Assembly: GCA_045587385.1 (NCBI GenBank)
Contig: JAZNCE010000048.1
Coordinates: 9,797 to 73,796, forward strand
DNA from: Eubacteriales bacterium
Lineage (GTDB): Bacteria; Bacillota; Clostridia; Oscillospirales; CAG-272
Length of the DNA stretch: 64,000 bases
Direction of reading: 5' to 3'
Positions 37,572 to 57,814 of the stretch are shown here, piece after piece (the first letter of the stretch is position 1; every line of letters begins with the position of its first letter). A program made the position numbers and the translations under genes. The notes beneath the pieces are model-generated. The model made no database searches, was not told where the DNA came from, and worked only from the letters and a program-made list of their open reading frames with translations.

Positions 37572-38027
37572 GCTGTGCCGACAGCATGCGTCGGCAGGCG
37601 CAATTGCCCCCTTTTCCGGGGCTTTTTTTGCGCTTGTTTGCACGTGTGTTATGTCGTGGTGCGTCGTAATTTGTCGTAGTACGACATTTATTATGAACAT
37701 GTAATTTACCATTTATCTTTAATTTCGACATATTGTTATGATTTTCGTTATGTTTTTCTTGTGTTACGATATGTATCAAGTGCATTTAGAACAGTTGTTC
37801 TTGTGCCTTGGTGCGACATGGTGTGACAAATACGGATTTCGTACTGGAATTATTTTGTAAAGATTTTGTTAACAATGAGCAGAAACTATTTACTTAATAA
37901 TTATAATATGTTATAATAAATGCACGCTGACACAGGTGACAGAAAGCGACATAAACAACGCTTTTTCGAGCGTGCGACATTGGCAAGGCACACCCAAATT
38001 TATCAAGGCAATTTTGGAGATTTTACT

Positions 38028-39287
38028 ATGGAAAAGATCATTATCAACGGCGGACTTCCCCTGAATGGCGACGTGTATATTGACGGCATGAAAAATGCTG
38101 CCCTGCCTATCATTGCCGCTACCTTGCTTTGCCGGGACACCTGTATCATCGAGAACGTGCCTGCCGTCAGCGACATCGCTATGCTGCTTGACATCATCAA
38201 GGGCATGGGTGCCCGGGTGGAGTATCTTGACAAAACCGTCGTCAGCATCAACGCTGCAAACGTGCAGCCCGGCAGCTCCCCTTACGATCTCGTTTGCAAG
38301 ATCAGAGGCTCGGCATACATCATCGGTGCAGAGATCGGCAGATTCGGCACGGCACACGTCGGCTATCCCGGCGGCTGCGATTTCGGTGTTCGTCCGCTTG
38401 ATTTGCACCTGATGGGCTTTGAGGCACTGGGTGCAAAAATCTCCGTTGAGCAGGGTTATATCAACGCCGTCTCCCCCATGGGGCTGCACGGCAACTCCAT
38501 TTATTTCCGCCTCCCTTCCGTTGGCGCAACCGTCAACTGCATTCTTGCCTCCGTTTTTGCCGAGGGCGTGACCACCATCGAGGGTGCCGCTCAAGAGCCC
38601 CACATCGTTGACATGGTCAACTTCCTGAACAACTGCGGCGCAGACATTACCGGCGCAGGCACCTCCAGCATAAAGGTGCGTGGCGTGAAGCAACTCAAGG
38701 GTTGCCGCCACACCATCGTCCCCGACATGATCGAGGCAGGCACTTACATGGCTGCCGCTGCTATGACAGGCGGCTGCGTATGCGTGCATAACGTCATCCC
38801 CAAGCATATGGAATCGGTCTGCTCCGTTCTCGCAAGAATGGGCGTTAAGCTGGATATCGGCACCGACACCATCACAGTACACAGCGACGGTAAGCTGATT
38901 GCGACCGACGTTGTAACCCAGCCCTACCCCGGCTTCCCTACCGATATGCATCCCCAGATCAGCGCGCTGATGTGCGTTGCAGACGGCGTTTCCCGCATGA
39001 GCGAAATGGTATGGGATAACCGCTTCAGATACATCAACGAGTTCCAGAAGATGGGCCCGATGATCTCCGTTGCAGACAGAACCGCATCCTTTACCGGCAA
39101 CCAAAAGCTTTCCGGCGCGCCCGTGGTCTCCACCGACCTGCGCGCAGGTGCGGCACTCATTATTCTTGCCCTTCGTGCACAAGGCACCTCGCAGATCTCC
39201 AAGATCTCGCTGATCGAGCGCGGCTACGACAACATCGTCGGCAAGCTGGCAGCCTTGGGAGCGGACATCAAGAGAGTGGACGAATAA
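38028..39287 (+). CDS. murA: UDP-N-acetylglucosamine 1-carboxyvinyltransferase
   Basis: Start MEKIIINGGLPLNGDVYIDGMKNAALPI after GGAG. Full-length MurA-like sequence, with ...GGCDFGVRPLDLH at the catalytic-Cys loop region. Confidence 0.85.
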   Translation: MEKIIINGGLPLNGDVYIDGMKNAALPIIAATLLCRDTCIIENVPAVSDIAMLLDIIKGMGARVEYLDKTVVSINAANVQPGSSPYDLVCKIRGSAYIIGAEIGRFGTAHVGYPGGCDFGVRPLDLHLMGFEALGAKISVEQGYINAVSPMGLHGNSIYFRLPSVGATVNCILASVFAEGVTTIEGAAQEPHIVDMVNFLNNCGADITGAGTSSIKVRGVKQLKGCRHTIVPDMIEAGTYMAAAAMTGGCVCVHNVIPKHMESVCSVLARMGVKLDIGTDTITVHSDGKLIATDVVTQPYPGFPTDMHPQISALMCVADGVSRMSEMVWDNRFRYINEFQKMGPMISVADRTASFTGNQKLSGAPVVSTDLRAGAALIILALRAQGTSQISKISLIERGYDNIVGKLAALGADIKRVDE

Positions 39288-39519: not shown

Positions 39520-39558
39520 TTTTGTTCGTATTTGTGTCCACAAATGCAGTGCTTGCCA

Positions 39559-39607
39559 AGAAAAAAAGGATAGGGAACGCAAAGCGTGATGTTCTTATCG
39601 GAGAAAT
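39559..39607. repeat. Putative attL: host half-site AAGAAAAAAAGGATAGGGAA plus element half-site GTTCTTATCGGAGAAAT
   Basis: The host arm (39559-39577) is the inverted repeat of 57782-57800. The element arm (39591-39607) is a 16/17 inverted repeat of 57752-57768. Confidence 0.65.
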
Positions 39608-39626
39608 CACAAAAAACCGAATAGGA

Positions 39627-39672
39627 CAAGAAAACTCCATCATGGACAAAAGTCTGTGATGGAGTTTTCTTG
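39627..39672 (-). terminator. Terminator of the minus-strand cargo operon
   Basis: Perfect 16-bp stem CAAGAAAACTCCATCA / TGATGGAGTTTTCTTG with a 14-nt loop. T-rich tract downstream on the minus strand. Confidence 0.6.
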
Positions 39673-39754
39673 TTGCTTACCCTCCAAAACTTGCGTCGGA
39701 GGAAGCAAAGAATATACTTGGTGAAAAAAGCATAGTGAGATTAGCGACTTTTTG

Positions 39755-40444
39755 TCATTTGATTACAAGTTCTATGGATATAAGAGTCAACTTACCATCA
39801 TCAGTAAAGTTGAAAACACTTATACAATCAGCAAAATGATTTGCGTGCCAACCCATACTGGCGTATTGTTCTAATAATATTTCCTCCACTCCGTCATTAT
39901 TGATGTCAACTACCTCCACGGTTTTGAAACTATCAATCATGAAATTAGGAGATCCTTTGGGCGAACCATCTGCATTAAACAGATACGAAAACAGATAAGT
40001 ATCCTCCTGCACGACATACTCTTTCTCATATCCGGTTTCTTGGTGCCTGAATATGATCGCGCCGTCTCTAACCGTTACTTCAATATCCATGTTCTTATGG
40101 GCGGATAAGTATTCTGCAGAATCGAATACTACTTTGTCGTATTTATTATCTGCATCGGATTTCCCATAGATGACGGTGTGATATTGTCCCTGCCCTCCGA
40201 AAATGTCCAGTAAAGATTGTTGGCATAAGTAATCCGGTGTTCCATCCCCATCGCTATCTAATAAAGAAAATTCTTTATAAAGCGGAGATTGGGTGTGAAA
40301 TAATTGATTATTGTCTTCCGTTTTGGATGGAACGTTACTTTCCATTTCTACATTTTCCTCATGCTCGCCTGAACACGCACTAAAAGAATATACACAGACA
40401 AATACCGCGAGTAGTATGGTCAGGACTCTTTTTACCCTTTTCAT
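39755..40444 (-). CDS. Lipoprotein with DxDxDG (FG-GAP/VCBS-like, Ca-binding-type) motifs
   Basis: MKRVKRVLTILLAVFVCVYSFSAC lipobox. DSDGDGTPDY and DINNDGVEE. Confidence 0.6.
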   Translation of the reverse strand: MKRVKRVLTILLAVFVCVYSFSACSGEHEENVEMESNVPSKTEDNNQLFHTQSPLYKEFSLLDSDGDGTPDYLCQQSLLDIFGGQGQYHTVIYGKSDADNKYDKVVFDSAEYLSAHKNMDIEVTVRDGAIIFRHQETGYEKEYVVQEDTYLFSYLFNADGSPKGSPNFMIDSFKTVEVVDINNDGVEEILLEQYASMGWHANHFADCISVFNFTDDGKLTLISIELVIK

Positions 40445-40469
40445 TGAAAAAATATTGATAGACATATTA

Positions 40470-40691
40470 TCATCGCTCGTATTCATACCACCAACAGCCT
40501 ACCCGTTCACTCGGATAGACCCAAGCATTGATGTGGGAATTACCACACGCAATTTGTCCATATTTATTCTTGTTTTGGTGTTCTGCGTACCGGCAATCAC
40601 TACAATTATTGCTACTGCAAAAGCTTCCGCAAGGAATCTTTATCTTATTCTGAGAAGTCTTGTTGTTCTGGTTAATCTGATTGTTTTTCAT
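40470..40691 (-). CDS. 73-aa Cys-rich protein with N/Q/K-rich N-terminus (unknown)
   Basis: Strong RBS (AAGGAG, 8-nt spacing). Six Cys, including CGSFCSSNNCSDC. No signal peptide. Confidence 0.55.
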   Translation of the reverse strand: MKNNQINQNNKTSQNKIKIPCGSFCSSNNCSDCRYAEHQNKNKYGQIACGNSHINAWVYPSERVGCWWYEYER

Positions 40692-40729
40692 AATAAAAAT
40701 CTCCTTTAAATAAATTTTTTGGTTGTCAG

Positions 40730-41152
40730 TTAAATAATGTTTATCGGTTCATCAAAAATGATCACTCTATTCAGCATTCTCTCAGCTTTGTACCCGTATA
40801 GCTTGTTTTCGGAAATAACGTATACGGGAAAATAGAGGTGGTCGATGTCAGGTGGCATAGCCATCATAATATACTCAATGTATGCCTTATCCGCGGAAGA
40901 TAATGTACATTGATTGTTCAAATGGCTGTGTACTATACCTGCAAAACGCCATCGTTGCCAGCGCTCAATAACTTCATTTAAATACTCCACGTTTGGGGTA
41001 TACATATACCGATTGATGTCTTCGATTCGATCAAAAACCACTTCGCAGATGTCGTCCGCGCGGTCTGCTCCGAGCACGGCTCCGATTTCGTGATCACAAG
41101 CCCCTTGGGATGTGTCAGCAATAAGATCGTAAATTTCCTTGTATATCGTCAT
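40730..41152 (-). CDS. Stand-alone JAB/MPN+ (JAMM) metallopeptidase
   Basis: Exact HxHx7Sx2D motif in GIVHSHLNNQCTLSSAD, with an upstream Glu (DHEIGAVLG). AAGGAG RBS. Confidence 0.75.
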   Translation of the reverse strand: MTIYKEIYDLIADTSQGACDHEIGAVLGADRADDICEVVFDRIEDINRYMYTPNVEYLNEVIERWQRWRFAGIVHSHLNNQCTLSSADKAYIEYIMMAMPPDIDHLYFPVYVISENKLYGYKAERMLNRVIIFDEPINII

Positions 41153-41162
41153 GGGTTTCTCC

Positions 41163-42182
41163 TTAAGATTTTTTGTGCTGAGCTTTGAAGAAAGCTTCTT
41201 TGCGTTTGTTCGATTTACAATATGGGCAGGAGTAGAGACCTTTCTTATATTTGTGTAGTGGATTTTTCTTGCACGTATTTGTTATCTCTTTTTCATAGGC
41301 AGATAGTGCATTGAAATACCATTCAATCGGAACATTTTCGCCATTGAAAGTCTTTTGAAATAAATTTTGCAGTCGATAGGTCAGGCATTTATATGGCAAA
41401 CTGTAAATCGGGGGTTGATATCCTGCCGGACATTGTCCCTGTACATAAGGAAACTGGTAATTGCACATCAGCTCTGTGGGCTGTGGAACATTTTCGGTTG
41501 TGTTTCCTTTAGCAACTCCGACAGCGAAAGGATGGGCATCTATGATCAGTTGGAAGAGCATTAACGCTAAGGCAAAAATATCACTCTCCATTGAGAAAGT
41601 CGGCAAGGGCGCAGTTTTAAGCGTTTCTCCCTTGGGAATCGAGTTAGCAACGATTGAATACTCAGGAATACATACGTCACAACGGAAAACCTTGCCGCTC
41701 TTTTGATCTGATATATGCCATGAATCAACATCAATGAGTCGAACAAAGCCTGTGACGGGATCGATTAAAACGTTGAATGGATTAAGGTCACCAATCACAA
41801 TACCAGCCTCTTTGTGAATCGAGTACAGCAGTGCAGTCATGTTCTTTGCGATTGTACAGCGTTTTTCCATGTCAAGTGATTCGTCATCCCAGATCTCATT
41901 CAGCGGAACACCATTGACTCTTCGCATTACGAATCCCACGCACTTCCCGTTTCGATACAATATGTCTTTCGGATAAGCAATCTGGTCTTCGAGATTTGCC
42001 GGAACGCCCAATCTCAACATCGTTCTCAACTTTTCTTCTCGATATGAATTACAAAGCTCAGGCTTGTAAAGCTTAGCTATAGCACCGCTGTAATTTACCA
42101 CTTCAAAGATAGTAGCTTCACCGCCTCGTCCGCATTGTTTGCCAAGGATATAGCGACTTCCGAGCAAAGATTGATATTCCAT
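41163..42182 (-). CDS. Ser/Thr protein kinase-like protein (TerY-P-type) with C-terminal zinc-ribbon-like CxxC
   Basis: Start MEYQSLLG after AAGGAGG. G-loop GRGGEATIF, AIAKLYK (Lys), catalytic loop IGDLNPFNVLI, IDVDS in place of DFG. C-terminal CPYCKS. Confidence 0.75.
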   Translation of the reverse strand: MEYQSLLGSRYILGKQCGRGGEATIFEVVNYSGAIAKLYKPELCNSYREEKLRTMLRLGVPANLEDQIAYPKDILYRNGKCVGFVMRRVNGVPLNEIWDDESLDMEKRCTIAKNMTALLYSIHKEAGIVIGDLNPFNVLIDPVTGFVRLIDVDSWHISDQKSGKVFRCDVCIPEYSIVANSIPKGETLKTAPLPTFSMESDIFALALMLFQLIIDAHPFAVGVAKGNTTENVPQPTELMCNYQFPYVQGQCPAGYQPPIYSLPYKCLTYRLQNLFQKTFNGENVPIEWYFNALSAYEKEITNTCKKNPLHKYKKGLYSCPYCKSNKRKEAFFKAQHKKS

Positions 42183-42196
42183 ACAATCCTCCTTTC

Positions 42197-42904
42197 TTAG
42201 ATTTGGGGCAAAGGAAACACGTTCCACGCTTCATATTTTTCCTTGGGATAAGGAAGCATACAAAATCCATCATAAGAAACCTTATTTTCTGCACATATAG
42301 CTACGGTCGGATCTAACGGATACCACTTGTCCGAAAGGCGTATTAATGCCCAAGCGTGAGGCACACCGTCATGCGTTCCTTGAACGCAAACAAGCGGAAT
42401 ATCTAATAAATCAGCGCAGATCTTGTAAGCTAATGTTGCAGCTTTGCAAATTCCTTTGGCATACAACAGAGGGCCTGCCGGGGTATGTGCAAACTTATGC
42501 TTTTCGTATTCAAAATCATAGACCACGTGCTTGGAGAAATACTCGTACACCGCTTTAGCTTGCTCAACTTTGCTATTGCTCACAGATTTAGCGTACGCGG
42601 CTATTTTTTGTGCTTGATTTTCCATTTCCAATCGTACAACCTTATCTTTTTCAGAATCCAAAAAATAATGGAATTCTACGCAGAAGACCAATTCATTATA
42701 TGTCTTGAACGTGTATTGTTGAAAAAATGAGATGTTGGGATGCTCGAGAATGATACAATCAATAATTTTTTCAAGATCCTCCGGTCTGAGGAAAGGCACG
42801 AAGGTCCTCTCCTCGTGATTTTTCAATGCTTCCAATAATTTCATGTAAGTTTGCTGTAGATGTTTCGGTAGAAACTGATAATAATAAACATAAGTATTAT
42901 TCAT
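42197..42904 (-). CDS. Transglutaminase-like cysteine-peptidase-fold protein
   Basis: Cys-His-Asp arrangement GICKAATLAY...VPHAWALIRL..KWYPLDPT. Its start overlaps the PP2C stop by 8 nt. Confidence 0.65.
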   Translation of the reverse strand: MNNTYVYYYQFLPKHLQQTYMKLLEALKNHEERTFVPFLRPEDLEKIIDCIILEHPNISFFQQYTFKTYNELVFCVEFHYFLDSEKDKVVRLEMENQAQKIAAYAKSVSNSKVEQAKAVYEYFSKHVVYDFEYEKHKFAHTPAGPLLYAKGICKAATLAYKICADLLDIPLVCVQGTHDGVPHAWALIRLSDKWYPLDPTVAICAENKVSYDGFCMLPYPKEKYEAWNVFPLPQI

Positions 42905-43970
42905 TTCTTTTCCTCAACAGTTTATCAAAAGCAAGCTTAATCCTTTTGAGAAGTGATTCGCGGATAGCATCTTGGGACTTGTCTGTTACGACCGCATCCC
43001 CTATTTCCGTTTGATCGGTCTCTGCGTCGAGAGTTGCATACAAAAGTTTACGCCTTTTTTTGAAGAGCTGCTGCCAATCCGGGGGCATATAGTATTTCGG
43101 GGGTCTTGCAGAAGGGATCACATTTGTAGAACATATCAGCGCCGTCTTGTCATCAGTTATAGAGTCCAACAATAGAAACAATCCAGCTGATTTTTTTATA
43201 CTGCCCATAACGTTCTGTGCAACGGATTTATTCAATCCGTATTTGCGTAAAGATCTAAACATGGCCGTATAGACCAAATTACGAGAAATTGCTTTTGGAT
43301 TATCCACAAGATCCGATAACGTTACCCCTTTGTGTTTTAAATACCTGATCGTGTTGGAATCGGAAAGCAACATCAAAAGCGGAACGTATAGTCCATCGGT
43401 GTCTTCAATTGCCGGTTGCCTGATTTTGTCCATAATTCCATCGGTGGCGCATATAATCGAAACTATTTCTTGATCTATTCGATCTATGTGCCAGTATTTT
43501 GCGCCCGAACGCAGTGTAAGGACACATTGATCGACTCTTTGGCAAGGTGTCAAGTTCACATATTTACCGTTGGTTTGCTGAGCTATGATGCCGCCATCTC
43601 CGCAATGCCCGTAATAAAAAGTTGAGGTGACGTAATCATAAACAATGACCATTAAAGTAGTGTCGTACTCCGCAAGGTCCTCTTTGGCTTGATCCGCTTG
43701 ACGTTTTATATTTGAAAGGGCTTTTTGATAGGCCGTACGAATAAGAGATTTGACAACAAGCTCGTTTCTGTCTACCAATGGATAGTTTTCAACAATAAAT
43801 GTTGCAACAGTCTCCACTGCAAGACTGGATCCCTCGCCGCCGCATTTAGCAGATCCTACGCCATCCGCGATTGCAGCAACAAACAAATCTTCCTCGTGGA
43901 GGACGCAATATGCGTCCTCCGAAGTTTTGTGATGCTTTCCCGGAACGTAAGCAACATTACATTTTAGCAT
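42897..43970 (-). CDS. PP2C-family Ser/Thr phosphatase
   Basis: SEDAY, AIADGVGSAKCGG, HCGDGG, CATDGIMD metal-binding Asp blocks. GGAGG RBS. Confidence 0.75.
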   Translation of the reverse strand: MLKCNVAYVPGKHHKTSEDAYCVLHEEDLFVAAIADGVGSAKCGGEGSSLAVETVATFIVENYPLVDRNELVVKSLIRTAYQKALSNIKRQADQAKEDLAEYDTTLMVIVYDYVTSTFYYGHCGDGGIIAQQTNGKYVNLTPCQRVDQCVLTLRSGAKYWHIDRIDQEIVSIICATDGIMDKIRQPAIEDTDGLYVPLLMLLSDSNTIRYLKHKGVTLSDLVDNPKAISRNLVYTAMFRSLRKYGLNKSVAQNVMGSIKKSAGLFLLLDSITDDKTALICSTNVIPSARPPKYYMPPDWQQLFKKRRKLLYATLDAETDQTEIGDAVVTDKSQDAIRESLLKRIKLAFDKLLRKRNE

Positions 43971-44002
43971 AGCATAATGACCTCCAGGACAAAATGGAAT
44001 AA

Positions 44003-44725
44003 TTACCAGTCAGATGGCACTACGGCGAATCCCTGAGGCAAGGGTCCTAGCTGACAATTGTTGCCATCGCTAATAGCGCGGCTATAGGAGATAGTCGATA
44101 TGCTCTCAGAAAGCCAGTCAAACAATCCCGAGAGAGCCCCTTCATCGGTGCATTGAATCGTCCTTTTACTGAGGCTGGCAAGAGTTTGCATATCTGTGTT
44201 CTCAAGTCCAACCCCACAGCAGAACAGTCTGATTTTTTTCTGATCTTCACGTTCTCGCAATCTTTTTTTGGCTTCTTCCAAACTATCCGAGGGAAGGCCG
44301 TCTGTAACAACCATGACAAAAGGAGTAAATGCTGGAGTGCCGATAGATGAATAGACTCTGTTTCTTTCTCTGGTTAATTCAATAGATTTGATGATTGCCT
44401 CACCAAGAGGCGTGGTACCTTCCGCAACTATTTCAAGTGGGGGCTGTTTTACAAACTCGGCCATAGGTATCCAATCTTGAATCACCTTTACACCACGCCC
44501 ACCAAATGTTAATACGCACACATCCACTCTCTTCAACGTAATCGGGTCGGATGAATTAGATTTCTTAAAATTTTCGATTCCGTCAATAACGGCTTGGAGC
44601 TTTGATCCGTTGTTCATTGACCCTGATTCGTCAATCGCAATAACTGCCGCCAAATGCCCCTCCGAACAGGCTAAAATTTCGTTATAAGGTGCCTGCTTAA
44701 TTTCAATAGAGTTGTTAGTTGACAT
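44003..44725 (-). CDS. TerY-like von Willebrand factor A (vWA) protein
   Basis: MIDAS DESGSM, TPLGEAI and VVTDGLPSD. 240 aa, no signal peptide. Confidence 0.75.
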   Translation of the reverse strand: MSTNNSIEIKQAPYNEILACSEGHLAAVIAIDESGSMNNGSKLQAVIDGIENFKKSNSSDPITLKRVDVCVLTFGGRGVKVIQDWIPMAEFVKQPPLEIVAEGTTPLGEAIIKSIELTRERNRVYSSIGTPAFTPFVMVVTDGLPSDSLEEAKKRLREREDQKKIRLFCCGVGLENTDMQTLASLSKRTIQCTDEGALSGLFDWLSESISTISYSRAISDGNNCQLGPLPQGFAVVPSDW

Positions 44726-44784
44726 ATTTATTTCCCTTTCTCATTATCAATTATTATTTTAAAATCGTTGATTTGTATAACGTC

Positions 44785-45324
44785 TTATTTAACCTTTATG
44801 TTTGTAATAGTGCAGTTCTTCGCTTGGTATGTCCATGTTCCGTTCATATAGGGATCTCTCGCTCTTCCGTAAGGATATTTATACATCAAATCGTGTACAG
44901 AAACTCTGCAATTGTCATTCCGAGAGCAAATGTTCTGCTTAGCTACCAAGTATTCAATCGTAATTTTGTATGTCACACCTTTCTTAAGCCCTTTAAGAGT
45001 TGAAGATACGGAAGAAGGTGTAAGATCAAAGCTATCTTTAATATAGAACACTTTCGTACCGTTAATGGCAGGGGTAATTGTCAATTTCAACTCCGGAGCA
45101 TCACATCTATGACCGTAAGCCTTTGCCCCAGTAGATGTGAACTTAATTGAAGCGTTATTACCTGTCGCACGAACCGTAAAGGTTACTTTTGAATCAGCAT
45201 TAAAGGTGCGTGGTGTAGTGGATGCAGCTGACGCGCTAACGCTGAAAACACTTATGCTCGAAAGCAACACTGTGCAGAGGCAGAGGATGGAGATGAGTTT
45301 GGTGAATGTTTTTTTGATTTTCAT
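44785..45324 (-). CDS. Secreted beta-rich protein (unknown)
   Basis: Signal peptide MKIKKTFTKLISILCLCTVLLSSISVFSVSASA. AAAGGAAG RBS. Confidence 0.6.
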   Translation of the reverse strand: MKIKKTFTKLISILCLCTVLLSSISVFSVSASAASTTPRTFNADSKVTFTVRATGNNASIKFTSTGAKAYGHRCDAPELKLTITPAINGTKVFYIKDSFDLTPSSVSSTLKGLKKGVTYKITIEYLVAKQNICSRNDNCRVSVHDLMYKYPYGRARDPYMNGTWTYQAKNCTITNIKVK

Positions 45325-45457
45325 GTTAAAAATCTTCCTTTCTTTGATAAAATATGGTTTGATTGTGGTGGACCTCTCCTTAATTTAAGAAACCTCCTCT
45401 CTTTTTTGGAGAGATCCGTTAGGTGGATTTATATAATAAATTGTTTGAACTCTGAAA

Positions 45458-46369
45458 TTAGAGGCAGGCCGCGAAGATTGTAAAAAATCCTTTGTGATCT
45501 TTTTTGGGATGTTCATACAGAAAATCATCGTTCGATTCGTATGTGGCACGGTCATAGGTGAAGTACAAATGGATCTTTTTGCCAAGTCTGCTTGTCAAAT
45601 CAGCAAGTTCTGCGGCGTGGGTTTTATCCTCTGCCACTATGATTACGGATAACTCATCGCCAATTTTGATATTTGTATTGGATTTTCTGTGTTTATATAG
45701 TTTGATAACTCTCTCAAGCTTATCCATGAGATCATCGTTAGCAGTAGGTGTTCTTCTGGCAACCTCAACAAAGCTACGTACAACCTCGTCATTATCATCG
45801 AGAATCATTGCCGTGGGTCTCACGATTATGGAGGCCTTCTGATTTTCATTTTTTGCCTCTACAAAGGCAACATTAGCCACTTTGATATTATCATATTTGC
45901 CAGCGATCAAAAGCTGGTTTGCTGCGAGGATACGTTTGTATCCGAATACGTCTAATTCCGATAAGTAACCACCAAGTCTGTATCGAATTCCCTCAGATGC
46001 TAACAGGGACACTCCGCGACCGGCGATAATATACCCTTTTCCGGAGAAGTATCCTGTCGCGGATTCAAACGACAATTTTTGGACGAATCCTGAAGCCGAC
46101 AATTTCTTTAAGTGCCACTGGATTTCGTGCTTTGTGTAGCTATAGCCCTTATTTGTAAAAAGACGAAACAACAATTCCGACGTAACTACAAGGTGAACGG
46201 AAAGAGCTCGACAAATCTCTCGATCAAGATCAACGATTAAAATCGAGGTGGGCCTGTCAACAGTGTGTCTGCGAACGTATTCGCTATCATAGTCAAACAC
46301 GCTGAACGGACTCTTCTTTTCGTCAATTATGGTTGTATTTTCTTTCATATTTAAATTCTGAATTTTCAT
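45458..46369 (-). CDS. wHTH protein, replication-relaxation-family-like (possible D..ExK nuclease-type motif)
   Basis: wHTH-like segment DREICRALSVHLVVTSELLFRLF...HLKKLSASGFVQKL. YDNIKVANVAFVEAK. GGAGG RBS. Family call is tentative. Confidence 0.4.
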   Translation of the reverse strand: MKIQNLNMKENTTIIDEKKSPFSVFDYDSEYVRRHTVDRPTSILIVDLDREICRALSVHLVVTSELLFRLFTNKGYSYTKHEIQWHLKKLSASGFVQKLSFESATGYFSGKGYIIAGRGVSLLASEGIRYRLGGYLSELDVFGYKRILAANQLLIAGKYDNIKVANVAFVEAKNENQKASIIVRPTAMILDDNDEVVRSFVEVARRTPTANDDLMDKLERVIKLYKHRKSNTNIKIGDELSVIIVAEDKTHAAELADLTSRLGKKIHLYFTYDRATYESNDDFLYEHPKKDHKGFFTIFAACL

Positions 46370-46505
46370 TATTATGTATCCTCCAAAAAATTATTGTCAT
46401 CGGATTGATTGGTAACAATGACCATCATCTCAAATTATCGTGAAATATATGTGAGAGTGCCTTATCAAGGCGGTCGAATTAGTATCTTCATTATATAATC
46501 ACCTC

Positions 46506-46781
46506 TTAAGCGACATCTTCAGCAAACTGAAGAACGCTTTCAATCACTCCTCTTGGGAAGCGATCTTCAAAGAGTTTTGTGATATATACGAGGACTTGGC
46601 TGCCTACGCTCCATCCTCCGAACACATAGCTCATAGCAGACTTGCCATTCTCAAGCTGAAGCTCTACGATACATCCGGATGGTGTCCTTCTGCGTACGAT
46701 TCCTTGATAGGACGAATAAAGTTCCACATCTTGGTTGTTGATACTTGAATTTACTGGTGAATTATGATATAATATTTCCAT
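46506..46781 (-). CDS. Small OB/S1-like protein (unknown)
   Basis: GGAGG RBS. YQGIVRRRTPSGCIVELQLENGKSAMSYV...GSQVLVYITK resembles the S1/OB pattern. Confidence 0.4.
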   Translation of the reverse strand: MEILYHNSPVNSSINNQDVELYSSYQGIVRRRTPSGCIVELQLENGKSAMSYVFGGWSVGSQVLVYITKLFEDRFPRGVIESVLQFAEDVA

Positions 46782-46887
46782 AAGTGATACCTCCGTTTTC
46801 TTTGTGACTATATGATATCACATAGCGAAGACAGCGGAAAGGTATCGAAAGTGTACTAAAAGTGTAATCAACAAAAGGGAGGCATTT

Positions 46888-49800
46888 ATGACAGCGTTTA
46901 GGCTTGTTTACCAATATCTTAAACATCGAAAAGGCATGAGTATAGAATCATTAGCCGAAAATTTGTATATGAGTCCTGAAACCGTGAAAAAATGGTTAAA
47001 GAATGGTTTTAGGGCAAACAATATTACTCCTGAAAAGATTGCAAATCAACTTTTTGATTCAGATGCTCTTATGGAAGATTTCATAAACTACTTGGACAAC
47101 ATAGGCTTTTCTTTTTCTCAAAAAGCAAACGGAGAAATAAATACAGATACATTCATTAATGCCCTATCCTCTCTTTTGCAAAATGATTCGCCCAACAAAT
47201 TCCCTGATGATTTTGGAAAAAACAAAAATTTGACAGCAGAAAATGTACAAACTACTGTCAATATTGTTTTTTCAATTATAGATACTATATCTAATATCTC
47301 TCTCCCCGACTATTCCACATTGACAAACACAAACAGCAAGTACTGTACTGTTAGCCGAGCTACACTTATATCGCTTGCTAAGCATTGTTTGAATATAGAT
47401 ATAGACAATGAGCTTAGTGAAGGATGTACAGTTGATGCGTTGAATCAGCATATTCAAGATAATCCCTGCGATTTTCTTAAAGAATTTGCTAAGCAAGGGT
47501 ATAAATTTGAAGAGAAAAACGAGTTGGTTGTTGTTAAAGCTTTGAATCATACCAATACCGAAGTTAATGACGACACATTGTTTGAAACCTTAAAAACACT
47601 GTTTGAGGCATACAAACTTTTCGATCATTCAGATGTATCGTGCCTTAAAAAGAAAGAAATTAATATAACATTAAGCACGTTTTCCAACGCACTGGCCTTT
47701 CGCGGACTATTCATTACTCCCGAGCGCAAAAAATATTTCTGTGAATTTGTTCGTTATAACATACTGACAAGTAACCACGATTGCAACTATATATATCCTA
47801 TACTCTATAGTGTAAAGGAACAGTATGCCGGGAAAATAGAAAAAAGCCCGCCTCTTGTGCAAGTCGGGCTTGAAAAAACAATTGAATTGGTGGGCGAATA
47901 TTGCAATAATATTTTCCTAACAGATAACAATACCCTTCCTTTCATTCCAAATTTTCTTGCAACATTGGATTTTTATGATGTTGATAATTCTCAAAGGGTT
48001 AGAATACTTGAAGATCTTATCTTTAATAAGAAAGCCTATGATATAAGACTAATAAAAGCTCTTGCGAGTATTAATTCGAGTCGTTTGATTATCTGTCAAA
48101 AATACATTGAATCAACAATTTTTTCTCTATCAGATAAAGTCATCACCGAAGATATACGACGTGAACTTGTTGCATTCGTTTGCATGTTTGGCCGAGGCAC
48201 ATTTGAGCCTCTCGTCTATTTTGAAGCAAAAACCAATAAAAACTTTTTAAACTCCTTTTCAAGATTCACAAACTTTGTTTCGAGGAATTTTGACATCATT
48301 GTTTCCCATAATCATATACGTCGAAATGATATGGCACAAGGTTTATCGTATATTTTACTCACTATGAGTAGATATGATAAAAATTTAGCTAAAGCAACTC
48401 TACGCAACGTTAGATTGGAAAAGTTTGAAGACCATAAATTATTGACGGAAACATGTAAATTTATTATTGATGGGGAAGTTAGCTTTCGCTGTGCTACAAG
48501 TTTTACTAAAAGCTTTTCAAAAAGGAAAGATTTCTTTGATTATGTAGAAACTCATCTGATATGTTCAAAAAATCCGTTTTTGGAAAACGATAACGCAATG
48601 ATGTTAGAGGTCCTAAGCCAAATTCGTTCAGCTGCCAGAAAGAAGAATAATGAAGAAGACGATGATATAGAATTATCACAAAATTTAAAGGATTTCGCAG
48701 ACAACCTTTTGTTTTGGATTACTGAGGCTGCAATGGAAGATGTTAGACAAAATAGGCCAGTCCGTCATTTGTTTTGGCTTGCCAAGCAGTACCCTAATTG
48801 TATTAACTACGAATTAAACAACGATTATAACGAAAAAAGATCGGATGTTTTTGTTCAATTAATAAAGAATAGTAATTTTGAAATAATATTACCAAGCCAT
48901 TTTCAAAACATATGGGATGTATTTAGTTTGAAAACAAAACAAGATCTCACATTTGCGGGAGAACTCGATAAATGCATTTCTTATCTGTTTGAAAAGAATA
49001 AGCAATTTGAAGCACTCGACTTCATTATTTCAAACTATCGATTTGCTAGCACAATCAACCGGGCAAGAATTTTATGTTGTATTAAATCATTAGCAAACAG
49101 CCCGGAATTGTCAAATTTATCCTCGCCTATACTTTCAAAAGTTATCGGTTTTGCAAAAAGAAACTACGCTGATGAGGAATTGGGAGAAATCAAAGAACGG
49201 TTAATCCTCTCGTTGTCGCAACTTAAAAAGAGTAATAGGATATCTATCTATGATAGGTTTAATGCGTATTACAAATTATTAGACAAGCCTCTTGCAGAGA
49301 AAATAGCTCTTTCTATTACCATCGACGAAGCTGATAAGTATTTAACTTTTGTAGATGATGTGCTTGATTCAAAATATAATTCATGGCAAAGAGCTTGCCT
49401 CAAGGGCTTACTTTCAAATCTGTTACATCCCTCAATTTTTTGGACATTGAACTTAGATCGTCAGATCAAGTTGATTCATTACGTAAAAAATAAAGGAGAG
49501 TATTATGCAGACTTAAAAAATCTAATGCAAGATATAGTTGACAGAAACAACTTCTCTATCTTAGACTCAAGGCTCCGAACTGCGTTAACCATTCACTGCC
49601 ATAACTATATTGATCTCAAATATCCTCAAAACGCGTGTTTCCTTGAATTTCTTGAAAACACTTTAAACAAATTGACACAGAACGCTTATACACACTCAGA
49701 AATCAGAAACACTTACGGGTTAAAAACCGATACTCTTATTTACCATATTGTAGATGCATTTAAAAATCAACCCCAAAAAACTGCAATAATATGTGTTAGC

Positions 49801-50739
49801 TCAATTTGCAAAATATATAAGCAATTATCAATTCTTTCTACAGAACAAGAGTGGAACCCCTACAAAGCGTCTTTGTTAGCAGACAGAATCAAATTGTTCC
49901 CTGCAATTGTAGCAAATCCCTGCATAAATAATATTGCAAAACATTATGCTCGCAAGATGTACGGAATGATTAACAAAGCAAAAATGGATCTCCTTGATTC
50001 GGATTTGAAAGAGTTATTAAATGAACTTAGGAAAATTTGTCAGGATCAGTGGCCAAATTGGTTCGATATACATCCAATTGACATAACATTACTGCAAGAA
50101 GATAAAATCAAAGTTGGAATTGATGTTCCAATAGATAGTTTCTTAATTGATATTAGCGATACTTCTCGTTTTTCTTATGACAAGGCACAGAATGACCTTA
50201 GAAAATGGCGCGAAAATATTGATGCTCGGCCTCGGCCACTGGAACCTTCAGAAAAGAATGAGGTTGTAGCAGTATCCTGTAGAAATGGTTATGTACCGAT
50301 TTCGGGCTGGGGACTCGTATATGAGTGTGTTAAAGAGAAGAGAGATGGCTATTATAGTCCATCTGAAATAAAATCAACTATCATTTCAATAGCTGAAATT
50401 GCTCAAATACAAACAAAAAACAATTCCACACAATCGTTAAATTGCGAGGAAATTATTTATCAGTTCGAAAGAACATTTAATGCTCTGATGACGAGGATAC
50501 CCCAAAAAGCCCAGAAGCATGGACGGTATAATCGGATTTATATACGCGACGATGCATATGACATTATTGATTATAAGATTCTTCCGGATGTCGTTGCTTT
50601 TGTCAATTTCTATCATGATTATATCAAAGGGACATCGGCGCTCGAACCCAAAATAAAGACCTCGGTATTGGAAGCATTTTATGATTATCATAAAATGGTT
50701 CTGCGATTGTTAGATAAAATAATTCTCAAAGAATGCTAA
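46888..50739 (+). CDS. 1283-aa protein: XRE-type HTH N-terminus plus ~1200 aa with no recognisable domain
   Basis: AGGGAGG RBS. HTH segment RKGMSIESLAENLYMSPETVKKWLKNG. The remainder is Leu/Ile/Asn/Lys/Phe-rich. No Walker A, HxH or nuclease motif found by eye. Confidence 0.7.
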   Translation: MTAFRLVYQYLKHRKGMSIESLAENLYMSPETVKKWLKNGFRANNITPEKIANQLFDSDALMEDFINYLDNIGFSFSQKANGEINTDTFINALSSLLQNDSPNKFPDDFGKNKNLTAENVQTTVNIVFSIIDTISNISLPDYSTLTNTNSKYCTVSRATLISLAKHCLNIDIDNELSEGCTVDALNQHIQDNPCDFLKEFAKQGYKFEEKNELVVVKALNHTNTEVNDDTLFETLKTLFEAYKLFDHSDVSCLKKKEINITLSTFSNALAFRGLFITPERKKYFCEFVRYNILTSNHDCNYIYPILYSVKEQYAGKIEKSPPLVQVGLEKTIELVGEYCNNIFLTDNNTLPFIPNFLATLDFYDVDNSQRVRILEDLIFNKKAYDIRLIKALASINSSRLIICQKYIESTIFSLSDKVITEDIRRELVAFVCMFGRGTFEPLVYFEAKTNKNFLNSFSRFTNFVSRNFDIIVSHNHIRRNDMAQGLSYILLTMSRYDKNLAKATLRNVRLEKFEDHKLLTETCKFIIDGEVSFRCATSFTKSFSKRKDFFDYVETHLICSKNPFLENDNAMMLEVLSQIRSAARKKNNEEDDDIELSQNLKDFADNLLFWITEAAMEDVRQNRPVRHLFWLAKQYPNCINYELNNDYNEKRSDVFVQLIKNSNFEIILPSHFQNIWDVFSLKTKQDLTFAGELDKCISYLFEKNKQFEALDFIISNYRFASTINRARILCCIKSLANSPELSNLSSPILSKVIGFAKRNYADEELGEIKERLILSLSQLKKSNRISIYDRFNAYYKLLDKPLAEKIALSITIDEADKYLTFVDDVLDSKYNSWQRACLKGLLSNLLHPSIFWTLNLDRQIKLIHYVKNKGEYYADLKNLMQDIVDRNNFSILDSRLRTALTIHCHNYIDLKYPQNACFLEFLENTLNKLTQNAYTHSEIRNTYGLKTDTLIYHIVDAFKNQPQKTAIICVSSICKIYKQLSILSTEQEWNPYKASLLADRIKLFPAIVANPCINNIAKHYARKMYGMINKAKMDLLDSDLKELLNELRKICQDQWPNWFDIHPIDITLLQEDKIKVGIDVPIDSFLIDISDTSRFSYDKAQNDLRKWRENIDARPRPLEPSEKNEVVAVSCRNGYVPISGWGLVYECVKEKRDGYYSPSEIKSTIISIAEIAQIQTKNNSTQSLNCEEIIYQFERTFNALMTRIPQKAQKHGRYNRIYIRDDAYDIIDYKILPDVVAFVNFYHDYIKGTSALEPKIKTSVLEAFYDYHKMVLRLLDKIILKEC

Positions 50740-50753
50740 AGGGAGGAATCAAT

Positions 50754-51311
50754 TTGATTAAAAACGATAACAACATTCAATTAAATGCGATGGAAGAAAG
50801 CACCGTCAAAGCATTTCATACTGTTATATCCAGTATCCTTGAAGAAAAGGCATTTTCAATCTCAATTGGAATTACAAAAAGCGCTTTTGCTGAAAAATAT
50901 TTGGAGTTAGACCTTCCGTTGAAACCCGAAGACGGCGATAAAATTGATCCTCTTTGCGTTACAATGAAAAATGGAGTGTTTTATCTTGAATATTTTTATA
51001 GAGCAGAGTGCATATCGAATGAGCTCGGCTGCATCGCTACCAACGAAATCAATAGTAACCTGAATAATCTTCCAACAAAATGCGTCTATAGCCAACACGA
51101 AGAAGGTTTTTATATTTCGGCTGTATTTTATAATTCCGAAGATATCATCGAAGTAACAAACGCGGTGCTTCTTGTTCTTGAATATCTCATAATATTAGAG
51201 AATTTTTTAAAAGGAAAGGCAACAGATATGGAAACCGAGCAGGCATTTGATGCCATAGCAGCTGGCGGTGGTTATGTTTCGTCTAAGATTGAGGATTTTA
51301 ATATTTGTTAA
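50754..51311 (+). CDS. Hypothetical protein, partner B of the giant HTH protein
   Basis: GGGAGG at 50742-50747, then TTG at 50754. Alternative starts are ATG 50733 (overlapping the upstream stop) and ATG 50790. Confidence 0.55.
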   Translation: MIKNDNNIQLNAMEESTVKAFHTVISSILEEKAFSISIGITKSAFAEKYLELDLPLKPEDGDKIDPLCVTMKNGVFYLEYFYRAECISNELGCIATNEINSNLNNLPTKCVYSQHEEGFYISAVFYNSEDIIEVTNAVLLVLEYLIILENFLKGKATDMETEQAFDAIAAGGGYVSSKIEDFNIC

Positions 51312-51325
51312 AAATGGAGACTAAT

Positions 51326-52321
51326 ATGGATATTGTGAGCAAATTGAAAGAAAAGTTTGACGAGTATGGGTTAATGGATATCGCTGAAAGCTTTTGTGAG
51401 AGTTATAAATTAGCTATTAAGGATATGTATCCGGAAATCAGATTTGATAATGACGCGCTCCCATCCGACGATTGCTTTAAAACGCTCGTTGCTGTAAAGC
51501 AATCCATAATAGCAGACAAGGATCTATCATCAAAACGCGATTTAACGGACTTGGAAATTAAACGAATACTCGAAATTCCTTATACTCAAGTTCAGCAAGT
51601 TAAAGAGTTGATATGTGACTCGTATGATTACCAGCATGACGTAATAGAAAGTTATTATGGGAAAAATCTTTCCATGTATTTTATTACACCGGTAACGGTG
51701 AAAAAAGTATTTGAATATTTATCTGAAAAATTCGAGAATGAAATATGCAAACATGTATTTCTTGATTCTCTTATTCTTGGATACGAAGAAACAACAAACA
51801 GAATAGATACTTTGATAGCTTGTACAGGAATAGCTGCCACCGAGATTCTGTATGAAACGTATTGCAGAAACGGAAAGCTGGGCTATCTGCTATACCCCTA
51901 TTATACAAATCCGAAAAAGGCTATTAAATATTTATCCGAAAGACTTGATAAAAGCACGGTCGCCCACATACTCAAAACAGATTTTTGGTATCTATATGCC
52001 TACAAGGATGACGGATATCAAGGCGTCGCGACACACGGACATGATCAAGAGTATGTTGACCGAGTTGTTAGCGTCTATAAAGCGCAAGAAAATATTGCCA
52101 TTGCTTTCCATAATACAATGAATCAAGTCACAAAAGAAAATGCTCAAAATCTATGGGAAGAAACATTTTTGCCAAGATACAGCAAAATAAAAGACCATTT
52201 TTTGCAATATCCCCCGTGCCCACTTTTGACCAAATCTTTGTATGGCGTGATTACGATGTTTGACAGATACGAAATTGAGCTTAGCAATGAGTTTGCGTTT
52301 TATTCTTTAGATAGGACATGA
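51326..52321 (+). CDS. Hypothetical protein, partner C
   Basis: GGAG lies 5-6 nt upstream of ATG 51326 (alternative ATG 51314). Begins within 15 nt of the upstream stop (TAA 51309-51311). Confidence 0.55.
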   Translation: MDIVSKLKEKFDEYGLMDIAESFCESYKLAIKDMYPEIRFDNDALPSDDCFKTLVAVKQSIIADKDLSSKRDLTDLEIKRILEIPYTQVQQVKELICDSYDYQHDVIESYYGKNLSMYFITPVTVKKVFEYLSEKFENEICKHVFLDSLILGYEETTNRIDTLIACTGIAATEILYETYCRNGKLGYLLYPYYTNPKKAIKYLSERLDKSTVAHILKTDFWYLYAYKDDGYQGVATHGHDQEYVDRVVSVYKAQENIAIAFHNTMNQVTKENAQNLWEETFLPRYSKIKDHFLQYPPCPLLTKSLYGVITMFDRYEIELSNEFAFYSLDRT

Positions 52322-52504
52322 TACGGCAAATGGTAGGACGCTATATTGCGGACAGTCCTATCTGACAAAAACAAGGTAGTTCGGTTGAAAATTGACAGAA
52401 CACTCGATTGATTAAAGTTTTCTGTTTGTTAACACAATTAAGTCTGGACTTCCGCTCTCTTCTGTGGTATATTGTGTGTTACCAAAAACAAGGAGGTAAC
52501 ATAC

Positions 52505-52759
52505 ATGGCAAAGATTACGATTGAAGAGCTGTACCGCGGAGAAAAATACGACATCATGAGCGCAGTGACGGCAAAGGCATTGCATCTCGGCATTGACGAG
52601 CGAGCCGAGGAAGGTCGGACGTGGATTGAGATGGAACTCGTCCGTCAGACCGTGATAGCAATTGAACAAATGAAAAAGAACGGTGACTGTATTGCCGAGG
52701 AAGATCTCGGAGATATGGTCACCGTTTCTGTATGCGGAGGTTCTGATGAAAACAATTGA
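52505..52759 (+). CDS. Small conserved-looking IME backbone protein (unknown)
   Basis: AAGGAGG RBS before MAKITIEELYRGEKYD. Confidence 0.5.
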   Translation: MAKITIEELYRGEKYDIMSAVTAKALHLGIDERAEEGRTWIEMELVRQTVIAIEQMKKNGDCIAEEDLGDMVTVSVCGGSDENN

Positions 52760-53033
52760 CGAGCTGTGGTACGGCAACATCTCACCATTTGAGCAATGCA
52801 CGCACGGTGACAAGCGGTTGAAGGAACTGCTGAAACTGGTTGCCCGGAACCGCGAGGATTTGGACGGATCCCTTACGGAAAAGCAGAAGGAAACACTCGA
52901 AAAGTTTGAGGACTGTATGAATGAGATGCATAGCATCACCGAGCGCGATGCATTCTCCTACGGATTCCGACTCGGAGTGAAGCTGATGGCTGAAGCCTTC
53001 CTTCTGCCTTTGGGTGAGAATGAGAATTTATAG
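52746..53033 (+). CDS. Small IME backbone protein (unknown)
   Basis: Start MKTIDELWYGNISPFEQ overlaps the upstream gene by 14 nt. Confidence 0.5.
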   Translation: MKTIDELWYGNISPFEQCTHGDKRLKELLKLVARNREDLDGSLTEKQKETLEKFEDCMNEMHSITERDAFSYGFRLGVKLMAEAFLLPLGENENL

Positions 53034-53099
53034 GGTGGTCCCCAATGCCCATCCTAAAAGTCTGGTCTGGGTGAAAAGCACCCAGACCTATTTTTTTGT

Positions 53100-53700
53100 G
53101 CCGAAAGGCGCATTTTTTGTTTGCAAGGGCGATTTTTGTAAATAAAAAGTAAACAATGCGAAGTGAGGGGTGAATTTTGCCCATTTTTTGTCCTTTTAGG
53201 TGAGGGATGATTTTTCAAGGCAAGAGGCAAGACCTCATTTTGAGGTCTTGATGGTGTCCATGTCGTAATTTCCGCTCACAAGGTCAATTTCTGTAAACAA
53301 ATTGTAAACATATTGCCGAAAGCCCTCAAAAGGGGGTGTAAAAACCCCGATTTTTTTCATATAGGTGAGGAATGTTTTTCAAAAGGGGTTTATTTTCGGC
53401 TTTTCTGTGGCTATTAGGTGAGAGGATCATCTGCAAGACAGGATTTCTGTAAACAAACGGTAAACATTGCTCTCAAGAGGGGGTACAAACCGCTATTTTT
53501 ATGGGTATAGGTAGAGGATGTTTTTTCGATGGCGATGATTTTGTAAATATGCTGTGAATTTTTCTCAAAAACACCCTCCCCAAACCCTGTTTTTATGGGT
53601 ATAGGTGAGGGGACAAATTCTGACACGTAGGAATCAAAGAAAAAGTTTTTCGGGATGGTTATCAAAACACCAAAATTTTTGGCTATGTAATTGAGGGAAC
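53100..53700 (+). repeat. Degenerate direct repeats (4-6 units) in a ~650-bp non-coding tract
   Basis: Recurrent modules TTT(C)TGTAAA(C/T)A..(G)GTAAACA... then ...T-run...(A/T)TAGGT(G)AG(A/G)GGA(T). TAGGTGAGG-type cores lie near 53197, 53362, 53415, 53508, 53602 and 53688. Confidence 0.65.
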
Positions 53701-53802
53701 TTTTTCTGCCCTACATAAAAAATTTAGAAAGGCAGGTAATCAATGAAAACGTTAATACAAAAAGCAGCCTCATGGAGCTGTGGACGAGGGGAGGTGAAAA
53801 TA

Positions 53803-54092
53803 TGTCAGATTACAAATTGACACTCGCAGAAAAGGAAACCATCATTCTCTGGAGCGAAGTTGACGATACCGTTCAGATCGATACGTTCAGCCAAAAGCTG
53901 ATCAACCGTCTTCGCAAAGCAAAGGAAAGATGCCCGGAGCTTTATCGTGTGGACGATCCTGATCGCTATGGCGGTGTCTATGCGGAAGTGCCGAAAAAGC
54001 TCGTGCAGATATCCTTCCGTGAGCCGATCAGCGAGGAACGCCGCGAGCAGTACGCAAGGCTCGCCAAGGAACGCTTCTACAGCGAAGATTAA
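53803..54092 (+). CDS. Small IME backbone protein (unknown)
   Basis: GGGGAGGTG RBS before MSDYKLTLAEKE. Confidence 0.5.
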
Positions 54093-55696: not shown

Positions 55697-55741
55697 TCAA
55701 AATTTGCACCGCAAAACAAAGAAAAAGCAGAAAGGAAATTA

Positions 55742-55990: not shown

Positions 55991-56056
55991 TGTGTTTGTA
56001 TCCTATTCGGTTTGATTTTACAGAATCCATGGGATTCGGAAAGGAATGAAACTATT

Positions 56057-57700: not shown

Positions 57701-57751
57701 AAAGCAGGCAACCCGGAAGACTAAATGCCTTCCGGGTATGCCTACCGCCTT

Positions 57752-57800: not shown

Positions 57801-57814
57801 TCGTTTTGCAAAAA

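Follow-up and report, generated by a model that had tools for sequence, protein, structure and literature searches.

An eight-gene operon lies on the minus strand at positions 39755 to 45324 of the 64,000-nucleotide stretch of Eubacteriales bacterium DNA analysed here (contig JAZNCE010000048.1, referred to below as the window). We propose that it is a composite operon. In this interpretation, an invariant core of four genes is a variant of the TerY-P triad, in which a transglutaminase (TGase)-fold gene accompanies the genes for a von Willebrand factor A (vWA) protein, a PP2C phosphatase and a Ser/Thr kinase. Optional modules are attached to this core, and the whole would be a conflict or defence cassette of a mobile element. 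We give this reading a probability of roughly 0.55. The architectural conclusion alone is very probable, and a function in defence, suggested by analogy, is tentative. The operon has the following features (aa, amino acids).

44785-45324, minus strand: sec179, a secreted protein of 179 aa with a Sec signal peptide and a conserved Cys, of no known family
44003-44725, minus strand: vWA protein of the TerY/YegL type, 240 aa, cytosolic; metal ion-dependent adhesion site (MIDAS) intact, with D32-x-S34-x-S36, T105 and D142
42897-43970, minus strand: PP2C-family Ser/Thr phosphatase, 357 aa, with an uncharacterised C-terminal half
42197-42904, minus strand: predicted transglutaminase-fold thiol enzyme, 235 aa, cytosolic, with C153, H183 and D198
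41163-42182, minus strand: Ser/Thr kinase of the YegI/COG4248 type, 339 aa, short and soluble, with a C-terminal Cys-His-Cys-Cys zinc-ribbon-like motif
40730-41152, minus strand: JAB, a predicted minimal JAMM/MPN+ metallopeptidase, 140 aa; accessory
40470-40691, minus strand: four-Cys mini-protein, 73 aa; accessory
39755-40486, minus strand: lipoprotein, 243 aa, with the lipobox FSAC and the loops DSDGDG and DINNDG; accessory
39626-39673, minus strand: intrinsic-terminator-like hairpin, a 17-bp stem with a U-rich tail, which closes the operon

The preliminary description of this DNA had listed eight co-directional minus-strand genes with short gaps and an 8-nt overlap, and all eight open reading frames (ORFs) stand as it gave them. 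Intergenic distances range from -8 to 59 nt. The PP2C gene and the TGase gene share 8 nt, at the 3' end of the former and the 5' end of the latter, and the remaining gaps measure 10 to 59 nt. A good ribosome-binding site had been ascribed to every gene. Clear Shine-Dalgarno sequences are present for seven of the eight. For the lipoprotein gene, either Met1 or Met15 may be the start. The kinase ORF reaches back to a GTG codon at 42227 (41163-42227, 354 aa); an ATG at 42182 corresponds to Met16 and has AAGGAGGA ahead of it. Because of this ribosome-binding site, and because homologues are 339 to 343 aa long, the kinase most likely starts at Met16, with a predicted length of 339 aa. The kinase residue numbers used here (K52, D147 and the others) are counted from the GTG. 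The hairpin after the last gene, earlier taken as a perfect 16-bp stem, is real, and its stem measures 17 bp. The 161 nt around it fold at -56.9 kcal/mol (z = -7.6), and none of 200 shuffled sequences was equally stable. A scan for promoter and terminator consensus sequences gave a signal no higher than the shuffled expectation, and an Rfam scan of 38.5 to 59 kb matched no family.

The motifs that had been read directly from the translations were all present and conserved across their families. The vWA protein scores 33.5 bits against Pfam VWA (cutoff, 23.8). Its MIDAS residues (D-x-S-x-S, T and D) are invariant across 69 homologues, and none of 72 homologues has a transmembrane (TM) segment. 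The phosphatase matches Pfam PP2C_2 with 77.7 bits (cutoff, 24; 1.2e-21), and the metal-binding residues D36, D125 and D177 are invariant across 67 homologues. The TGase-like protein scores 28.4 bits against Pfam Transglut_core (cutoff, 23) and matches PDB entry 9crn_A, a transglutaminase-like domain protein, with an expectation value (E) of 2.9e-5. Its Cys-His-Asp triad is kept in every full-length TGase ORF beside related triads, the one exception being an ORF interrupted by masked bases. Only 1 of 17 TGase proteins has a predicted TM segment, which indicates a cytosolic location. The kinase falls slightly under the Pfam Pkinase cutoff (31.2 versus 31.7 bits) and matches the PADLOC PD-T4-6 model (1.5e-11). 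Across 22 sequences, its residues K52, D147, N152, D166, C319, H325, C334 and C337 do not vary, and its C terminus is predicted to adopt a zinc-ribbon fold. The protein ends about 17 residues past the last Cys of the zinc motif, and no further domain was found. It has no TM segment, and its lineage is an exception among the relatives in this respect. Therefore, the earlier vWA, PP2C and TGase assignments are borne out by Pfam scores above cutoff, and those of the kinase and JAB by invariant residues, joined for JAB by a structure model.

The TerY-P triad was reportedly described by Anantharaman et al. in 2012. Its defining members are a PP2C, a TerY-like vWA protein and a Ser/Thr kinase that carries a fused zinc ribbon (PMC11090510). 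Compared with E. coli YegL, the window vWA protein shows 35% identity (E = 6e-31). The kinase can be aligned with YegI through both its kinase domain and its H..CPxC zinc motif (E = 2e-27), and the phosphatase matches PphC (E = 6e-7). By tblastn, the vWA protein also matches true TerY genes over their full length, with about 26% identity (E = 1e-3 to 2e-7), and these genes adjoin TerX/TerD on IncHI2-type and Klebsiella plasmids. Because its vWA, PP2C and kinase are homologous to YegL, PphC and YegI, and more distantly to ter-operon TerY, we class the core as a TerY-P-type triad, in agreement with the preliminary description. PADLOC v2 gave no TerY-type match on the window proteins. It likewise gave none on E. 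coli YegL/PphC/YegI or on two Clostridial triads, and the negative result is therefore uninformative.

The window shares several characters with known TerY-P loci. The TerY-type vWA with its MIDAS, the PP2C and the Ser/Thr kinase are encoded in one operon, the kinase ends in a zinc-ribbon-like Cys/His motif, and the setting is mobile or variable DNA. However, the window places the TGase gene between the PP2C and kinase genes, so the three triad genes are co-operonic but not directly adjacent. It has no McrBC/CoCoNuT, helicase or nuclease partners. Its host belongs to the Gram-positive gut Clostridia, and the vWA protein is distant from ter-operon TerY, as its identity of only about 26% indicates. 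In the literature, the form with a zinc-ribbon kinase is embedded in CoCoNuT systems of types II and III-A, and the stand-alone forms, which are reported to be anti-phage, have a kinase with a C-terminal OB (oligonucleotide/oligosaccharide-binding) fold (PMC11090510). By that description, the window kinase differs from those of the tested stand-alone systems in having no OB fold. YegL, PphC and YegI form the closest experimentally touched set of homologues, and kinase activity of YegI and phosphatase activity of PphC have been reported (bioRxiv 10.1101/819920 and 10.1101/303594). However, E. coli has no TGase gene, and its gene order is different, with yegJ separating yegI. The preliminary description rightly counted TerY-P among the anti-phage systems with experimental support, which comes from E. 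coli and P. aeruginosa. The activity is credited to Gao et al. 2020 in summary form (PMC7699616), and a P. aeruginosa TerY-P system protects against Autographiviridae, with most infected cells surviving (10.1101/2022.08.12.503731). The literature also links TerY-P triads to WXG/FtsK secretion modules and to large restriction modules.

A genome scan with the kinase alignment yielded 79 loci, gene contexts were surveyed with phmmer, and about 95 loci were examined overall. The vWA-PP2C-kinase triad is present in most of the 79 loci, and a TGase-like gene adjoins it in about 20 of them. The exact order vWA-PP2C-TGase-kinase is found in L011, L012, L015, L019, L022, L023, L025, L030, L041 and L049. 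In the kinase tree, the TGase-bearing loci concentrate in a large clade together with the window lineage, and their distribution is patchy. The TGase insertion is apparently a recurrent and conserved variant of TerY-P, and apparently an undescribed one: a full-text literature search, whose coverage did not extend to the founding 2012 paper, returned no description of TGase-linked TerY-P triads.

Loci L005 to L082, from gut Clostridia, Treponema and other metagenome-assembled genomes (MAGs), have the same four protein families and catalytic residues as the window. However, their kinases are membrane anchored and their TGase proteins are about 340 aa long. None carries sec179, JAB, the mini-protein or the lipoprotein, all of which are missing from the 78 more distant triad loci. 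Of 87 related kinases, 74 continue past the kinase and zinc-ribbon module directly into 1 to 8 predicted TM segments. Some of those in L005 to L082 carry NPCBM, bacterial SH3 or Big_2 domains of extracellular type. Most of the related kinase family look like receptor kinases. Related triads are recurrently accompanied by a Tox-GHH nuclease toxin together with a TrwB/FtsK-like ATPase, by a VTT/DedA protein, or by a DUF2085 membrane protein; none of these is present in the window. In L006, L011, L022, L023 and L041, a conserved trio ahead of the vWA gene encodes a Tox-GHH (HNH/EndoVII) toxin, a TrwB/FtsK/HerA-like ATPase and, in addition, an unknown protein of 422 aa. This trio of gut Clostridia resembles the FtsK/WXG associations reported for TerY-P.

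The window belongs to a lineage of nine distinct loci with a short kinase. These are the window, L004, the L002 type (also L095 to L098), L086, L087, L088/L089, L090/L091, L092/L093 and L094. Their gene content is as follows.

vWA-PP2C-TGase-kinase: 9 of 9 lineage loci
p303, a co-directional gene upstream of the operon: 9 of 9 lineage loci
sec179 family: 8 of 9 lineage loci, absent in L094
JAB: 5 of 8 assessable lineage loci
lipoprotein: 5 of 8 assessable lineage loci
Cys mini-protein: 3 of 8 assessable lineage loci

The gene order is repeated in the nine loci at 40 to 55% amino acid identity, with synonymous sites saturated, and is therefore beyond chance. JAB starts 10 to 12 nt after the kinase gene wherever it is present. 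In L088 and L090, JAB is followed directly by the lipoprotein gene, without a mini-protein gene. In L086, L087 and L092, the operon stops after the kinase gene, and JAB and the lipoprotein are missing. The neighbourhood survey thus found the TGase gene syntenic with the triad both in this lineage and beyond it, and the other added genes only in part of the lineage. The sec179, JAB, mini-protein and lipoprotein genes are accessory modules that have been gained, lost and swapped within the element lineage.

Sequence and profile searches with sec179 gave no Pfam or PDB match. JAB scores 18.6 bits against Pfam Prok-JAB, under the cutoff of 25. However, the residues of its E..HxHx7Sx2D site (E22, H75, H77, S85 and D88) are invariant in homologues. 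[quoted passage not shown] At E <= 0.001, the model has 153 matches in the PDB, with JAMM1 and Rpn11 at the top, and its TM-score (template modelling) to 5ld9 is 0.72 to 0.77. The assignment is therefore secure despite the sub-cutoff Pfam score. JAB has the fold and the complete metal site of the minimal JAMM/MPN+ isopeptidases (Pyrococcus JAMM1, AF2198 and the Rpn11 catalytic domain). However, it differs from them in its context: domain scans of all operon and island genes found no ubiquitin-like beta-grasp protein, E1 or E2 to partner it, and its neighbour is the four-Cys mini-protein. No JAB relatives were found in annotated plasmids, and none in IMG/VR viral contigs with two different alignments. 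The word-index search for JAB under-counted the family, and the 40%-identical JAB proteins of L088 and L090 were reached only through their kinase contexts.

The mini-protein does have the six Cys residues originally noted, but only four of them (C30, C33, C49 and C66) are family-invariant. Its family has 17 representatives among 1.84 billion proteins, all of 61 to 90 aa. The N-terminal stretch is variable and of low complexity. A structure model reached a pLDDT of 67, and Foldseek gave no match with E below 3. The lipoprotein has an FG-GAP_3 match under threshold (E = 1.5e-4) and homologues with 47 to 55% identity in L002, L004, L088 and L090; PDB sequence and profile searches with it gave nothing significant.

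The operon is a mosaic. L004 is a near-identical element in an unrelated Eubacteriales MAG. Its p91 (a second gene upstream of the operon), p303, PP2C, TGase, kinase and JAB are 86 to 95% identical to those of the window, with synonymous divergence (dS) of 0.12 to 0.49 and a ratio of nonsynonymous to synonymous divergence (dN/dS) of 0.14 to 0.30. The identity is 47% for sec179, 61% for the vWA protein, 61% for the mini-protein and 49% for the lipoprotein, and here the proportion of synonymous differences (pS) is saturated at 0.75 to 0.86. The edges between diverged and conserved blocks are sharp. These edges, together with the saturated synonymous sites, indicate that the sec179-vWA and mini-protein-lipoprotein segments were swapped for divergent alleles by recombination. 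Between the window and L002, all genes are saturated save JAB (dS, 0.32; 91% identity). The JAB genes of the window (40730-41152), L002 (10001-10423) and L004 (11077-11499) are 91 to 95% identical, with dS of 0.17 to 0.32, and the other genes of the JAB-sharing elements are 29 to 62% identical. An unsaturated JAB among saturated neighbours implies a recent horizontal spread or gene conversion of the JAB gene alone. For the mini-protein, the identity of window and L002 is 90% despite a pS of 0.72 (dN/dS, 0.03), which indicates strong purifying selection. As this pattern of mosaic replacement shows, the eight genes do not have one common history. Conflict loci on mobile elements typically show modular shuffling of this kind.

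JAB and the mini-protein also travel without the triad. Their genes are adjacent in the window, in L001 to L004 and in L085, and in L083 only a radical S-adenosylmethionine (SAM) gene lies between them. No triad is present in L003, L083 or L085. L085, which came from the phage collection, is an unverified 4-kb gut 'phage' scaffold in which genes for a small TM protein and two lipoproteins come after the pair. L083 (7575-10360) is another mobile element and encodes a CFI-box-CTERM protein, a 62-aa mini-protein homologue, a radical SAM/SPASM enzyme of the type found with ribosomally synthesized and post-translationally modified peptides (RiPPs), and JAB. The N terminus of the CFI-box-CTERM protein repeats the four-Cys pattern. 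Only this gene order hints at a possible enzymatic modification of the mini-protein. L001 (2003-10691) is chromosomal. It encodes a PP2C, a 1360-aa Hanks-type receptor kinase that has Flg_new repeats, an unknown protein of 427 aa and a RicinB-CHAP protein, and after these sec179, which again adjoins the pair of JAB and the mini-protein. Its kinase belongs to a different family from the window kinase. L001 is thus a second, independent association of the sec179-JAB-mini-protein trio with Ser/Thr phospho-signalling. JAB and the mini-protein are a two-gene unit of their own, which exists outside triad contexts and moves between mobile elements. A general association of this pair with radical SAM enzymes was considered and rejected, with L083 alone in its favour: the radical SAM/SPASM enzyme of L001 is of an unrelated type, is encoded on the opposite strand and shares 25% identity over 157 aa with the L083 enzyme.

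The operon lies at one end of a mobile element, which has the following parts.

39558-57801, no strand: integrated mobilizable element of about 18.2 kb, with the operon at its left end
39558-39577 and 57782-57801: 20-nt inverted repeats, 90% complementary, exactly at the edges of the low-GC island and likely the ends of the element
54429-54749: MobC (Pfam MobC/NikA)
54710-55696: relaxase, MobA/VirD2 (Pfam Relaxase)
56012-57700: large serine recombinase (Pfam Resolvase, Recombinase, Zn_ribbon_recom and DUF4368)

The GC content (guanine plus cytosine) is 0.33 to 0.46 in the island and 0.51 to 0.57 in its flanks. We identify this region as an integrated mobilizable element because it combines MobC, a relaxase and a serine recombinase with low GC content and inverted repeats at both edges. 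The vWA protein and the kinase match the prophage families phrog_28389 and phrog_37888.

We suggest the following mechanism, each step of which we infer from homology and from the conservation of catalytic residues. The kinase and PP2C would control whether a partner is phosphorylated, and the simplest candidates for this partner are the vWA protein and the TGase-like enzyme. The role of specificity or adaptor component may fall to the vWA MIDAS protein, which is rapidly replaced. The TGase-fold enzyme would be the output and would cleave or cross-link a target protein. The pay-off would most likely be protection from phages or competing elements, which we propose by analogy to the tested TerY-P systems and from the location on a mobile element.

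Several points weigh against a defence cassette with optional modules. The tested TerY-P systems are proteobacterial, and the OB fold reported on their kinases is absent here. No nuclease or other classic effector is encoded in the window operon. The membrane-anchored related kinases (74 of 87) suit envelope signalling equally well as defence. The missing TerY-type match in PADLOC can be listed here too, uninformative as it is with the control triads also unmatched. The ten-gene order, including JAB, mini-protein and lipoprotein, outlasted the synonymous saturation between the window and L002, and this argues for some functional coupling of the added genes. Finally, the nine lineage loci share one common element backbone, and co-occurrence among them is therefore not independent evidence.

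The operon had at first been taken as one eight-gene system, and in its strict form this reading makes it a single integrated machine. The phospho-switch would gate the TGase-like and JAB effectors, which would carry out the proteolytic or deconjugating steps suggested in the preliminary description, and the mini-protein and exported proteins would be obligatory. This would explain the tight packing of the operon before a single terminator, the constant spacing between kinase and JAB, and the full sec179-to-lipoprotein order in the window, L004 and the L002 type, which persists despite 29 to 62% identity and saturated dS. The trio in L001, again beside a PP2C and a kinase, points the same way, although that kinase is of another family. 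However, the four-gene core is intact in L086, L087 and L092 without JAB and the lipoprotein, and in L088/L090 without the mini-protein. The added genes occur in none of the 78 more distant triad loci, the JAB-mini-protein pair occurs in elements without a triad, and the genes have separate recombination histories. One eight-gene system is thus not what the comparison reveals, and we regard the integrated machine as doubtful. We consider it very unlikely that the operon is a conflict system, soluble and complete in itself, in which two writers are each opposed by an eraser. In such a system, the kinase would oppose PP2C, and the TGase-fold enzyme would form isopeptide cross-links that the JAMM isopeptidase cleaves. 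The modification would fall on the mini-protein as adaptor or substrate, and specificity would come from the vWA and exported proteins, which are rapidly replaced. If true, a mobilizable element would carry a bacterial analogue of cross-link-based immune signalling that does not depend on ubiquitin.

A function outside defence also has to be weighed. The operon could be an envelope or cell-surface signalling module, or a secretion-control module, that serves the element or the host, with the exported proteins as signals, sensors or cargo. A comparable case is the threonine-phosphorylation pathway of kinase, PP2C, vWA protein and lipoprotein that gates the H1 type VI secretion system of Pseudomonas. 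Such a role would suit the TM segments and extracellular-type domains of the related kinases, the membrane location of YegI (10.1101/819920), and the links of related triads to the TrwB/FtsK-like ATPase with Tox-GHH, to VTT/DedA and to DUF2085. It would also suit the WXG/FtsK connection in the literature and the secreted protein and lipoprotein that this lineage carries. However, the lineage kinase is soluble and the operon encodes no membrane protein, so there is no obvious path for a transmembrane signal. The exported proteins are dispensable in some members of the lineage, and phage resistance is the sole experimental phenotype reported for TerY-P triads. We therefore consider envelope signalling unlikely. 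Maturation of a RiPP-like peptide, with the mini-protein as precursor, JAB as leader peptidase and possibly the kinase and the TGase as modifying enzymes, is extremely unlikely. In L083, a mini-protein homologue does lie directly upstream of a radical SAM/SPASM gene of the RiPP-maturase type, with JAB after it. The variable, low-complexity N terminus of the mini-protein and a weak similarity of the kinase to LanL/LanKC kinase domains (E = 3.6e-8, far under cutoff) would also fit. However, that similarity is generic, and the window element has no radical SAM enzyme, cyclase, lyase or exporter. The radical SAM gene of L001 belongs to the unrelated type noted above, and JAB occurs without the mini-protein. 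The mini-protein core is conserved throughout, with four invariant Cys residues, aromatic residues and a dN/dS of 0.03, like a folded zinc-binding domain.

TerY-P is a validated anti-phage system, with no mechanism in the literature surveyed here. The window lineage is a compact, all-soluble version of it, with four enzymes or adaptors encoded in about 4 kb of a small mobilizable element. The TGase-fold enzyme adds a further, conserved catalytic component and is an obvious candidate for the output. With such a cassette and such a candidate, what the phospho-switch controls becomes testable with catalytic mutants. TGase-containing triads recur in gut Clostridia, and the comparison also defines a rare, previously unnamed pair, the JAMM peptidase and the four-Cys mini-protein. 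The locus is a testable entry point to the mechanism of TerY-P, not a categorically new system.

Two co-directional genes upstream of the operon, which the preliminary description had not counted in, are co-conserved with the eight-gene cluster.

45458-46369, minus strand: p303, kept in all lineage loci as listed above
46506-46781, minus strand: p91, a small gene co-conserved with p303

A weak match to Replic_Relax (PF13814) is seen in 3 of 7 p303 members, with a best E of 1.1e-3, and PDB sequence and profile searches with p303 gave nothing significant. It is probably a backbone protein of the element, replication-relaxation-like and with a winged helix. The p91 protein may belong to the element backbone too.

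Divergent from p91, a plus-strand operon of three genes (46888-52321; 1283, 192 and 338 aa) is kept in L004. Its proteins gave no significant match in Pfam, NCBIfam or PADLOC. At the same position, the sister elements carry unrelated large genes, encoding 736 and 567 aa in L002/L086/L088, 1082 aa in L087, and 456 to 466 aa in L090/L094. This position looks like a variable cargo slot, and possibly holds a second conflict system. Upstream of MobC, a non-coding region (53132-53611) contains iteron-like direct repeats, with three copies of about 25 to 27 nt at a spacing of about 155 to 240 nt. The repeats fall into two interleaved families and could be a candidate origin of transfer (oriT) or replication origin. 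Outside the element, about 270 nt from the left inverted repeat, lies a plus-strand gene (37920-39287) that, by the look of its translation, is a host gene of the MurA type (UDP-N-acetylglucosamine 1-carboxyvinyltransferase). Just beyond the right end of the element, there is a perfect 19-bp palindrome (57813-57852).

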